Positions 15,658 to 20,415 of a DNA stretch of 58,975 nt are shown here, in pieces; position 1 is the stretch's first letter; each line of letters starts with the position of its first letter. Both the position numbers and the translations under genes were made by a program. The notes under the pieces were generated by a model. That model saw only the letters and a program-made list of their open reading frames with translations. It was not told the DNA's origin and made no database searches. Source of the DNA: Eledone cirrhosa (lineage: Eukaryota); the NCBI GenBank assembly GCA_964016885.1, contig CAXHJY010001042.1, forward strand, positions 1 through 58,975, given 5' to 3'.

Positions 15658-18600
15658 CTAATTCATCGCCGCTATGGCATTAGCTTGTGCCAAGCTGAAA
15701 GGTTATTGAAAGACACTGTTTTCTGTTATATAAAAACTACAATAACAACAGAACAAATCCGCTTCTTAAAACACTGTGTTTCCTCCAAAACATACACAAC
15801 AAACATATCAAAACAAGTAAATAATTTATTATTGAACAAAACACAAGCTGAACGGCTAAAACACACAATAACAGTTAATATGAAAAGAACAACATACACA
15901 AAAGTCAACGCACTCTACAGACAAAAACGCATCAACGGTAAGGAAATCCGAAATCTCATCACAGCAAACGAGAGAGATGACTTCATGAGCGTCATCCGAC
16001 GCGAAACGAAATATGCTCAAAACGAATGCTGTAGGCATTTCAAGAAGAAATTAGAATGGATGAATAAGAAAAAACTACAAGAAAGGAAAATCGAATATTC
16101 TCAAAAATACCCAGATAACATCGACAACATCCGTATGAGTGATGTAAAACTACCGGAAGAATTTACCAATGACCACACAGTAAATATCTATGGGAACACT
16201 TTAATCAGTGAACAAGAACAACAAATCCTAAAGTTACCACCAAAATTTGCCATCTACAAAAAGATTAACCCTATGGAATGCAAAACGGAGCTGGAAAAGT
16301 GTTTCACAAAAATACGTTGGAATGCAAAGGTAAACAACAACAACAATAATAACGGTAGTAGTAATATAAACAATAACTCTGGGTATAGAAATAACAGCCA
16401 TAACCATAACAATGGCAGGAAAGTGAGAAATAGTGATAATGGTAATAATACTAGCGATAGACAGAACAACAACAACCACAATAATAATAATAATAGAAAC
16501 GTTAACCACAGACACAGCAACAGTGACCACAGTAGTAATAACGGTAACAATACGAACAACAACAACAACAATAACCACAGTGGTAATAATGGAAATAGTA
16601 CATGTAGCAACATCAACAAAAACAAGAAACATAATAATAGTAACAACCACAATGGTAGAAATAGCAGTAACAACAACAACAATAACGGTGAAGTAAACAA
16701 CAATACATCTAGCAATCATAACAATAATAATATTAATGCTAATGATAGAAACAACAACAACCACCATGATAACAATAATAGCAACACACACAACTATGAC
16801 GATAGAAATAACGACAACCCCTTAGAGAAACTATTTTTCAACCCAGCTGACAAAACATATAAGATGGGTAATATCTATCCTACGAGGTTACCCTTTAATA
16901 AAAGAGTTTGCATACCACAGCAAATAGATGACGAGACGGAGGCACAGTTCACCATAGCTAGAAATAAGATTAGACAAGTAGTAGACAGGTACACTATGAG
17001 ACAGAGCAGACCAGAGGCCCAACAACTTGGGATAAAACCTGTAGAAGGCTTGGTTAGCCTCAAGCAGCGCACAAGGGATGGTGAGGTAGTGTGTCTACCC
17101 ACAGATAAGTCCGGTAGGATGTCAATAGATAGCATGCCGAACTACATCGAGGCAATGCAACCCCACATCACCAACACGAGCGAAGTTGCACAACTAACAC
17201 ACGATGGGAGAGAAAAAATCCTCAACGCTCACATGATGATGTGGACTGACATCCTAAAGCCAAGCAGACGCACTGCCAACAACTTCCAGGCGTCTAACAA
17301 TGGCATACCACCCTTGTATGGGCTCCGCAAAGACCACAAGACAGTCGACGACCCGACAACAGGACCACCAACAAGACCCGTATGCGGAGCTAATATAGCT
17401 AGCAACTACAGGATCTCCTACTTCCTCTCGGTGGTTATGCGCCCCATAATCAATATGTCCCCAGATGTATGTGAAAGTACAGAGGACCTCCTCAGCGGAA
17501 TCAGTGAGTGCAACAAAAACAGGAGCCTATCCAACTGCATAATAGGCAGCATGGATGTGGTGTCACTGTACCCATCCATTAACATTGATTTTGCTGTGAA
17601 AAGATGTGTGGAGGTGATCATTGAGAGTGAGGTGGAGTTCTGCGACGTCGACACAGACGAACTGGGCCTCCTACTTAGACTTACCTACGACACTGACTAC
17701 CTAGACAGCCATGACCTTAGATGTTTCTGCCCTAGTAGACCTATAAGAGGTAGACCCCCCACCATAACCTCAATGGCTAAAAAGACTCCCATAGGAAGGT
17801 GGATTGGGTGGACCAAAGCTATACGGACCCCCCAAAACACTGATCAGGTAAGAAAAATGGTCGCACATGCAATAGGAGCTAGTATCAAAACTACCCTAAA
17901 GGGCCACATATTTAAGTTCAATGAGAAAATCTACACCCAATATGAGGGAGCAGCCATCGGCGTCAGCATAGCTGGTGATGTTGCCAACCTTTTCATGGTA
18001 TGGTGGGAAAGGAGACTTAAAGATCTCCTTAATGAAAGCTCCATAGACCTCATCATGTACTCTCGTTATGTAGACGATATCAATATAGTTATAAGAACAC
18101 CCCCACTAGAGAGCACTAACAAGTTTGATTTAGAACGTAGCACGATGGAAAGCATCCAGCAGATAGCTAATTCCATACACCAGAGTATAACTGTAACTAT
18201 AGACTTCCCTTCCAAACACCCTAACAATAGACTACCTGTATTAGACACAGAACTCTGGATTAACACTATAGACGAGAGAGCCCAAATTCTCCACTCACAC
18301 TATGCTAAACCCATGGCCTCCAAATACCTGATACTCAAAAACTCAGCAATGTCCAGTAGTGCTAAGTTTAATATTCTGATCGCAGATTTGGTACGAGTGA
18401 TGAAGAATGTGTTCAGCATGTGCGACCCAACAGAAATGGAAGGACACATCCAACACTTCATCAACCGCATGCAGTTCTCTGGCTACAACCAAAGAGACAG
18501 AGTCAGAGTATACGAAGGAGCCATGGAAAAGTATAAGACCCTCATAGAACTGGACATGAAAGGAATTTGCCCACTATACAGGAGCAAATCATGGAATAGC

Positions 18601-19224
18601 TTAGATAGGGCTAGACATAAGATAGGGAAGGCCACATCATGGTACGACAACCAGAGATATCAGAGTGTCATGTTTGTGGACGCCACCCCTGGAGGGAAAT
18701 TAGCTAACCAGTGTAGAAAGGCCCTGAGAAAGACCCACTTAAAAATAAAGGTGGTAGAAAAGCCAGGAACCACCATAAAATCCCTGATCAGCAAAACCTA
18801 CCCTTTTAAGAAAACCCACTGTACCAATAGGAAATGTATCATATGTAAGGTGAACCCCCGGATAAACTGTAAAACTAGAAACGTAGTCTATAGCATAAGA
18901 TGTACAGAGGGTACTTGCAGAAACACGACAACAACATACATAGGTGAGACAGCTCGTAGCATAGGTGAAAGGATAGACCAACACTGGGGGGAACTAAAAG
19001 GACGAAAAAACGGGTCAGTACTATACGAACATGCTAGACAACAACATGACGGTAACATAGACAACATAGAAATTAGAATAATATCTAAACATAGGAATGA
19101 CCCAGCAGATAGGCAAATCAGAGAGGCCAGTGAAATAGAAATTAGAAGACCAAAGCTAAACAGAAAGAATGAGTGGAACAACAACAACACCCAAACAAAC
19201 AACACTGACCTAAGAGAAGTATAA
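15658..19224 (+). CDS. PLE polyprotein: N-terminal domain, Asn-rich insert, reverse transcriptase, Cys-rich linker, C-terminal GIY-YIG endonuclease (Neptune-like layout). The true N-terminal codons lie at 19729-19797
   Basis: Motifs PTDKSG, LRKDHK, PTRPVC, GSMDVVSLYPSI, GAAIGVSIAGDVANLFM, RYVDD, LPVLD, CTNRKCIIC..C, NVVY..C..C..YIGET.R, E..LN. The ATG at 15613 in the ORF track lies in the inverted arm. Confidence 0.93.
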   Translation, partial: LIHRRYGISLCQAERLLKDTVFCYIKTTITTEQIRFLKHCVSSKTYTTNISKQVNNLLLNKTQAERLKHTITVNMKRTTYTKVNALYRQKRINGKEIRNLITANERDDFMSVIRRETKYAQNECCRHFKKKLEWMNKKKLQERKIEYSQKYPDNIDNIRMSDVKLPEEFTNDHTVNIYGNTLISEQEQQILKLPPKFAIYKKINPMECKTELEKCFTKIRWNAKVNNNNNNNGSSNINNNSGYRNNSHNHNNGRKVRNSDNGNNTSDRQNNNNHNNNNNRNVNHRHSNSDHSSNNGNNTNNNNNNNHSGNNGNSTCSNINKNKKHNNSNNHNGRNSSNNNNNNGEVNNNTSSNHNNNNINANDRNNNNHHDNNNSNTHNYDDRNNDNPLEKLFFNPADKTYKMGNIYPTRLPFNKRVCIPQQIDDETEAQFTIARNKIRQVVDRYTMRQSRPEAQQLGIKPVEGLVSLKQRTRDGEVVCLPTDKSGRMSIDSMPNYIEAMQPHITNTSEVAQLTHDGREKILNAHMMMWTDILKPSRRTANNFQASNNGIPPLYGLRKDHKTVDDPTTGPPTRPVCGANIASNYRISYFLSVVMRPIINMSPDVCESTEDLLSGISECNKNRSLSNCIIGSMDVVSLYPSINIDFAVKRCVEVIIESEVEFCDVDTDELGLLLRLTYDTDYLDSHDLRCFCPSRPIRGRPPTITSMAKKTPIGRWIGWTKAIRTPQNTDQVRKMVAHAIGASIKTTLKGHIFKFNEKIYTQYEGAAIGVSIAGDVANLFMVWWERRLKDLLNESSIDLIMYSRYVDDINIVIRTPPLESTNKFDLERSTMESIQQIANSIHQSITVTIDFPSKHPNNRLPVLDTELWINTIDERAQILHSHYAKPMASKYLILKNSAMSSSAKFNILIADLVRVMKNVFSMCDPTEMEGHIQHFINRMQFSGYNQRDRVRVYEGAMEKYKTLIELDMKGICPLYRSKSWNSLDRARHKIGKATSWYDNQRYQSVMFVDATPGGKLANQCRKALRKTHLKIKVVEKPGTTIKSLISKTYPFKKTHCTNRKCIICKVNPRINCKTRNVVYSIRCTEGTCRNTTTTYIGETARSIGERIDQHWGELKGRKNGSVLYEHARQQHDGNIDNIEIRIISKHRNDPADRQIREASEIEIRRPKLNRKNEWNNNNTQTNNTDLREV

Positions 19225-19494
19225 ATAAATAAGTAAATAAAATAAAATAAAATAAGATAAATAAATACATACACAAGCACATAAACACACACTAGTCACC
19301 CAGCAGACACAACACTATACACACTAGTCACACATCACACATAACACTATACACACACGCAAACGCATGCGCAAAGAAGACAAAATAAAATAAGATAAAC
19401 AAACAAGCAAATAAATAAATAAATATATAGACAGACTGAACAAAAAAAATGGCGTAGACATACAACACAACAGGAGGAACAATGAATATAACAC

Positions 19495-19532
19495 CACTGA
19501 CGATGTTGCAGATGTGCAACGAAAGATTTATG
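19495..19532 (+). ncRNA. Hammerhead-like core in the PLE pLTR (weak stem I); inverse copy near 14725-14762
   Basis: CTGACGA-T-GTTGCA gatg TGCAAC-GAAA-GATT-TA; only 2 clear bp of stem I. Confidence 0.55.
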
Positions 19533-20415
19533 TAAATTATGTAAACTATATATATATGTGTTTGTCTATATTGTATCTGTATTATTTTTGACCGCCGGTC
19601 AGTCAATGGCAACATTGAGGACCGAGTAAGTTAGATCGCAGATATATATATATAAAAGACAGCGAGAAGCGAAAACCAACCAAACAGTGAGTGTGTTCTG
19701 TTATTAATTCTGGCAATATTACGCAAATATGACCCTCCCCAAATATAACAATATCTGTTTCGACACACGATTTCATATAAAAAACCTCGCAAAACTATAT
19801 ATATATATATATATATATATATATATATATATATATATATATATATATATATTTATTATATATATATATATATATATATTTTTTTTTTTTTTTTTATTAG
19901 ATTCATTTTATTTTTTATTATTTATTAGATTTGTTTTTATTCTGATAGCTTCTCATAATTTTTATTAGATTTATTTTTTTTATTCTGATAGCTTCTCATA
20001 ATTTTCAAAAGTTTGTCCTTTCAATGTCTTGATTAAAATATACGTAAGATAAATTTCTATGCTAAATATATTAAACATATTATTTTAACTTGAAATATTC
20101 TATAATATTTTGGGATATTTTAGTATTTTGATGTTTGTAGAATTCGTTTGCCTCCAAAAGCAACGGTCACCTTTTTGAAAGGGTACGTCAATATCTATTT
20201 GTAAAACTGTTATATATTGTATTTTGTCTGATGAAGGCATACCATGATTTAACTTGGTATCCTTGAAATATATATAATGAAATAAATATGGTTTTATAAA
20301 TATAGTTTCCATTTATTAATATTGTATATCTACTCCAAATATTTGTCGAGTTATAATAATATTTGCTTGTTGTATCCCAACAATTTAAATAGAACTTTTG
20401 CATATATATATATAT

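Follow-up and report, generated by a model that had tools for sequence, protein, structure and literature searches.

A two-armed, 5'-truncated Penelope-like insertion in Eledone cirrhosa: probable twin priming at two fixed sites and a probable chance stop at unit length

Contig CAXHJY010001042.1 of the Eledone cirrhosa assembly GCA_964016885.1 (positions 1 to 58,975, the whole stretch analysed here and called the window) carries in a (TA)n tract a copy of a Penelope-like element (PLE) whose start codon lies at its 3' end, and this locus raises the question of why a retrotransposon copy should end in the first codons of its own open reading frame (ORF). A preliminary description held that this is an intact element and an exact unit-length circular permutation, and that its codon-exact closure points to a circular or precisely processed unit-length template. 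We find that it is one 5'-truncated, two-armed insertion of a high-copy PLE, and we think it probable, although well short of certain, that it arose by twin priming at two fixed sites in the start of the ORF, its one-unit length being a chance stop.

Positions given as +n or -n are counted from the A of the ATG at window position 19729 in a 4137-nt unit, so that 19754 is +26, 19797 is +69 and 15661 is +70. The insertion and its target are laid out as follows.

14446..14502, no strand: left (TA)n target tract, from sequence reading.
14503..15660, minus strand: inverted arm, which duplicates 18545-19754 apart from 52 internal nt deleted near 15273; its outer end at +26 belongs to the "short" end class.
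15658..15660, no strand: CTA microhomology at the head-to-head joint of both arms, from overlap analysis.
15658..19797, plus strand: main arm, 4140 nt, starting at +67 to +70 and ending at +67 to +69 of the next unit; the "tailed" end class.
15661..19224, plus strand: ORF body, codons 24-1210 and the stop, from the reading frame and motifs.
19729..19797, plus strand: beginning of the ORF, from the start codon to codon 23; the PLE "tail", which the inverted arm lacks, spans +27 to +69.
19798..19878, no strand: right (TA)n target tract, from sequence reading.

Aligned along 1158 bases, the two arms show 0 mismatches, and the insertion is the +26/+69 case of a two-ended pattern found across the family. 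By chance, the inverted arm also supplies an in-frame ATG at 15613, which opens a 1203-codon ORF (15613-19224) with a foreign N-terminus on the truncated copy.

What was first read from the letters is largely accurate. The stretch 19729-19797 does encode the start codon and 23 codons before running into (TA)n, the body does begin with CTA ATT CAT CGC at 15658, and joining 19797 to 15661 does give 4137 nt with a 1210-aa ORF. The tail of a sister family at 45491-45574 spans the join as claimed, although its differences in the first 23 codons, described as many and synonymous, are 6 synonymous and 4 replacement changes. The closure is nevertheless not exact: because the CTA at 15658-15660 is common to the main and inverted arms and the final TA of the main arm is common to the (TA)n target, both ends are uncertain by about 3 nt. 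Codon-exactness adds nothing in any case, since a join that restores the native sequence is always in frame. Nor is the copy intact, as it lacks the first 22 codons and an upstream pseudo-long terminal repeat (pLTR) in direct orientation. A complete ORF of 1208-1211 aa behind a direct pLTR is present at 21/52 ATG-bearing loci (some of them units of one array), and therefore the window copy is a 5'-truncated one rather than the intact element, and start and promoter can be supplied without a circle.

The family in the searched genome (3.0 Gb) shows what is regular in such copies. Three 3' ends entering (TA)n are preferred, namely +26 (2725 pattern matches), +69 (1515) and +84 (an estimated 3000 or so), so every copy has the start codon at its 3' end. 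In most mapped two-armed insertions both arms point outward. Of the 235 clusters that lie wholly inside a locus, 83 have two outward arms that both end in (TA)n, which leaves 75 after duplicate removal, and in 71 of these 75 unique insertions an end at +19 to +30 is paired with an end at +69 to +85. In a sample picked irrespective of end type, the pairing also holds for 27/30 insertions (p=1.6e-6 against 50:50). Among 62 simple pairs, the short-end (+26) arm is the longer one in 28, so that either arm can be longer, and a microhomology overlap is found at 35/62 junctions. The sister family repeats the +26/+84 pairing twice within the window, with a different sequence at +84.

44987..45574, no strand: sister-family two-armed insertion with ends +26 and +84, from sequence comparison.
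57635..57884, no strand: second sister-family two-armed insertion with ends +84 and +26, from sequence comparison.

A third sister-family piece, at 58331-58433, ends at +26 in (TA)n. Hairpins following the end sites were considered as a common signal and rejected: one is stable after +84 (-7.4 kcal/mol), one is marginal after +26, and none folds in the sister family.

The inverted arm of PLEs could be thought to arise by self-priming or fold-back on the first complementary DNA (cDNA) or on an antisense template, with the endonuclease trimming one tail (PMC3846280, PMC8557442). The near-identity of the arms would agree with this, as would the nesting of the short arm within the tailed arm in 31/62 simple pairs and the near-perfect palindromes formed by 6/62. 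However, neither arm is nested in the other in 25/62, and those inverted arms are therefore not copies of the partner cDNA, each needing its own template start; fold-back is contradicted there unless long precursors were later deleted. The 28/62 pairs with a longer +26 arm also speak against it, and we regard fold-back as decidedly unlikely. For the anole element PAc (Poseidon of Anolis carolinensis), PLE protein in vitro initiates internally at two adjacent sites and cuts and extends both strands, and a dimer is predicted (PMC11167929). Together with the non-nested arms, this makes it the simplest reading that both ends of a single break acted as primers (twin priming). One target end would prime at +26 and the other at +69 or +84, probably via a protein dimer, and the two cDNA ends would then be joined by microhomology, which in the window copy would be the CTA.

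In LINE-1 twin priming, the second target strand primes the inverted arm and microhomology joins the arms, but the second site varies from case to case and there is no overlap between the arms. In the family described here neither site varies, and overlap of the arms on the template is usual.

If two fixed sites account for the ends, the 4137-nt length of the main arm still asks for an explanation. On the reading of the preliminary description, the copy is a record of its template's length: reverse transcriptase (RT) would have made a single turn on a unit RNA, either circular or precisely processed, and halted where it had begun. In favour of this are the closure of the window copy within 3 nt, a second copy that starts at about +68, a raised stop rate near unit length and the single haplotype of repeats within arms. 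As predicted there, no extra sequence separates LAKL from IHRRY: the best 30 body-start loci are contiguous with the upstream tail in 30/30. The 5' ends of these loci are scattered, however, as are those of arms across the family, while the 3' ends keep to their three preferred sites; the breakpoints are thus uncoupled in other copies, which the preliminary description had itself named as a refutation, and the argument from closure to template is not supported. The 18-mer across the join has 3412 genome matches, mostly 3' ends that continue 14 nt further. In 260 copies the sequence carries on across the join and into the ORF, so that this stretch is ordinary genomic sequence. The pattern for a break just before CTA has 2 matches, the window copy and a read-through copy with a 1-nt deletion, and only the window copy truly breaks there. 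With 431 copies reaching +100 and 0.7-1.64 stops/kb, 1.2-2.8 breaks are expected per 4-nt window, so the single CTA break is what chance gives.

Closure was counted in copies anchored at +310 (80 of the 100 listed, out of 318 in the genome). Among the 61 full-length arms of this sample with a mapped tail end, none (0/61) comes back to within 5 nt of the point where it began; 39 exceed one unit and 22 fall short of it. Across family copies no coupling of 5' and 3' breakpoints was found that would make unit-length permutation a family feature. The one-unit length of the window copy is likely a chance stop, and we hold it very improbable that the copy records its template length.

The stops themselves were examined along the arms, where the rate is about 0.7/kb with a broad two- to four-fold rise near one unit length and no sharp site. 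From +85 to +309 there are 25 stop events (1.64/kb) against 10.7 expected, with 0.6-0.76/kb further upstream (p=1e-4 against 0.7/kb). Pattern counts at +1460, +600, +310 and +100 (1204, 659, 318 and 431) are distorted by subfamily alleles, and paired pattern positions were therefore used for stop rates, giving 1.1-1.5/kb for +600 to +100 vs 0.69/kb for +1460 to +600. In 40 further loci anchored at +100, 9/40 have their stop in the interval +13 to +94; alignment breaks in older subfamilies inflate the rates upstream of +1 in this sample. A cluster of stops at +85 to +102 with a void at +60 to +84, seen in the first 80 loci, was not replicated in these 40, where 1/40 stops at +85 to +99, and this too goes against a recorded template length. 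The numerous 5' ends that seem to lie at +1 were discarded, since they reflect broken alignments in older subfamilies. Arms continue past one unit at an unchanged stop rate.

First-pass arms have more stops at -251 to -330 (15 events, 2.2/kb vs 0.85/kb in the next bin). The pLTR features of the window are as follows.

19446..19454, plus strand: AAAATGGCG motif, also present in the sister family, near the inferred transcription start, from sequence comparison.
19497..19530, plus strand: minimal hammerhead-like core (CTGACGA, stem II, GAAA, AGATTT) with a predicted cut after 19530, patterned as in PMC4209133.
12209..12499, plus strand: solo pLTR fragment of the same family, which runs into (TA)n soon after the ATG, from sequence comparison.

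Some first-pass stops (window about 19420-19465; loci L057, L096 and L108) lie just upstream of AAAATGGCG, some of them in near-perfect palindromes. The -251 to -330 region near the motif is a candidate transcription start, and the motif resembles a YY1 site. The hammerhead-like core and stem II are present and conserved but stem I is weak, and with no Rfam hit the ribozyme stays putative; the Rfam scan of 11000-21000 returned no hammerhead family, only microsatellite and microRNA noise. At the predicted cut, family copies show neither a 5'-end pile-up nor a scar. A 9-nt duplication across it (19526-19545) divides the family about evenly, 68 vs 64 copies, and is stable within insertions, with the same variant in all copies of 51/54 insertions. 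Comparison of 18400-19797 with four contig runs gave presence only, without starts or ends.

The evidence on the template is that one haplotype is found throughout an insertion, in both of its arms and in each successive repeat of an arm. Arm-to-arm divergence has a median of 0.19% vs 0.79% to other copies and is lower in 29/30 pairs. Repeats within 27 longer-than-unit arms show 4 differences at family-polymorphic sites in 39,543 bases (0.10/kb), where random pairs (n=299, not age-matched, which limits the comparison) show 3.4/kb; the 24 arm pairs give 0.10/kb as well, with 20 shared alleles that are otherwise unseen. In 7 arms, 13 alleles are common to the repeats of one arm and absent from every other insertion sampled. 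The private alleles counted over 71 insertions fall into 47 that every copy of the insertion carries (25 insertions) and 205 that a single copy carries. One unit-length template would thus have been read more than once. In the L198/L199 array (G000:C1 near 181.30 Mb), all repeats lack the same approximately 117 nt of the 3' untranslated region, and the recurrence of this deletion in every turn is what repeated reading of one template should give.

A linear multimeric read-through RNA from tandem donors could instead be the only template, without any single-unit bottleneck, as was put forward for the anole element (PMC11167929). Arrays with at least three units do exist (periods 4147 and 4145), and first-pass stops are raised at -251 to -330 as they would be at a linear 5' end. 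Yet repeats of one arm almost never differ at family-polymorphic sites and carry common private alleles, and second-pass arms have no pile-up at -330 to -260, where 3/55 stop and 42/55 run beyond -330, which makes a multimer unlikely as the sole template. A linear, terminally redundant RNA, on which RT transfers repeatedly from the 5' end to the 3' pLTR and yields permuted or multi-turn products with no covalent circle, would account for the single haplotype and for the first-pass stops near -300, and it makes hammerhead cleavage unnecessary, which matches PMC11167929. Against such transfer stands the lack of a scar or haplotype switch at the hammerhead site (51/54 insertions), though homologous transfer need leave none; we rate it second among the template forms, doubtful rather than dismissed. 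The likeliest form is a hammerhead-cut circle, for which our confidence comes near to an even chance and falls somewhat short of it. The broader idea of a single-unit, possibly circular template therefore survives in part: allele sharing, arms running past one unit and the stop rise near unit length agree with it, although the circle itself is not shown.

A fuller scheme, which we hold to be less likely than not, would have this autonomous, protein-coding element copied from a hammerhead-cut circle of RNA, 4.1 kb long, by two RTs that begin at +26 and at +69 or +84, one from each end of a single (TA)n break; both would go on beyond one unit and stall more frequently on approaching the start zone, which is already occupied, and the window copy would be one that halted just where it had begun. 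Several observations weigh against twin priming with a chance stop, or against the single-unit circle. The pairing has exceptions in 4/75 insertions (2 with two long ends, 1 with two short ends and 1 irregular), 129/235 clusters, before duplicate removal, do not have the two-outward-arm form, and the in vitro start sites are the same on both strands (PMC11167929). As stops are raised near unit length, the position of the junction is not uniformly random, and locus L256 (G000:C1 near 96.032 Mb), one of the 9/40 stops above, has its 5' end at about +68 directly after (TA)n and may be a second closure. There is no A>G excess among the shared private alleles (7/47), and they are therefore no proof that the alleles arose in RNA; the sharing could also come from gene conversion, from homogenisation during assembly or from donors outside the sample (80/318 copies examined). 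Hammerhead cleavage was dispensable in vitro and none of the RNA reads had its end at the cut site (PMC11167929), which counts against a circle, and all of the mechanism is read from genomic fossils.

The ORF consists of an N-terminal domain, an Asn-rich insert, RT (YVDD at 18067-18078), a CX4CxxC linker and, at the C-terminus, a GIY-YIG-type endonuclease with CCHH.

16340..16820 (approximate bounds), plus strand: low-complexity Asn-rich in-frame segment, from sequence reading.

A single ORF with RT and with a GIY-YIG domain at its C-terminus is what defines endonuclease-containing (EN+) PLEs, and YVDD, DKS, VYSIRC..YIGET and the conserved R/H/E/N residues can be read in it; the CCHH appears as C-TEGT-C between VYSIR and YIG followed by H..H, and partial tandem or inverted pLTRs with a one-sided tail are also present. 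The linker between RT and endonuclease, C-TNRK-C-II-C, has the CX2-5CxxC form of Neptune, which also occurs in Nematis, and the Neptune clade is paraphyletic (PMC8557442). A Pfam search of the ORF gave no hit; 71 homologues were found, the best being a 67% match to an Octopus vulgaris protein, and distant homologues carry PF00078. The Hydra clade (CCHH absent, CxCX5C linker, DKT, <3 kb) was ruled out, as CCHH, CX4CxxC, DKS and 4.1 kb are found here, and so was Naiad/Chlamys with its N-terminal endonuclease, which here is C-terminal. By the motif definitions of PMC8557442, and with no tree, the element may be called a (TA)n-targeting, Neptune-like Penelope; the C-terminal GIY-YIG with CCHH, the CX2-5CxxC linker and the microsatellite bias are common to both.

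Much of this architecture is familiar. Start codons in the pLTR, partial tandems, an inverted 5'-truncated arm, a tail at one end, AT-rich or microsatellite targets, 5'-junction microhomology and Asn-rich ORF inserts (the last in Adineta families) are all known for EN+ PLEs (PMC3846280, PMC8557442). Compared with those accounts, the tail here is 43 or 58 nt vs 30-40, the Asn-rich insert lies upstream of RT, unlike in the EN+ PLEs described, the pairing rule now has counts behind it, and the arms that are not nested speak against self-priming. PAc likewise has fixed 3'-end sites in the ORF start that define the tail, an AT-rich target and extension of both strands (PMC11167929), but there are three sites here (+26, +69, +84) vs two near +111 to +118, and the putative hammerhead lies about 200 nt upstream of the ATG vs overlapping it. 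The asymmetric use of sites at the two ends of one insertion, seen here, has no report in the PAc text consulted (PMC11167929). The circular-RNA model for PLEs (PMC4209133) has a hammerhead in the pLTR, for which the core found here is a candidate, and shares more-than-unit head-to-tail copies; the circle was proposed there without a genomic test, and here allele sharing is compatible with it while exact unit-length closure is no family feature. A literature search, with supplements and subscription papers outside it, found no paper stating fixed two-site twin priming for PLEs.

The rest of the window is rich in repeats. Units of 460 nt are arrayed head to head at 38482-43848, and every one of them has a hammerhead-like core on the minus strand. 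Minisatellite arrays lie at 24395-25750 (35-nt) and 30434-31400 (26-nt), and near-perfect fold-back palindromes with 180-230-nt arms at 20415-20809, 22964-23333, 33526-33929 and 49602-50079. The GC-richer stretch 13760-14250, with minus-strand open frames (13419-13892, 13586-14026), is possibly a remnant of another retroelement. The whole-window repeat search was swamped by (TA)n, but the inverted arms were still recovered.

The exact closure is in itself unimportant, and the one-sided tail, the tandems and a circular template are already in print as observations or proposals. The interest lies with the family as a whole, whose copies offer evidence of twin priming and of a single-unit template for an element that is autonomous, since a young family with thousands of ends and intact ORFs gives counts that separate the models proposed for tandems, inverted arms and one-sided tails of PLEs. 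If twin priming on a single-unit template is true, one mechanism would account for all three.

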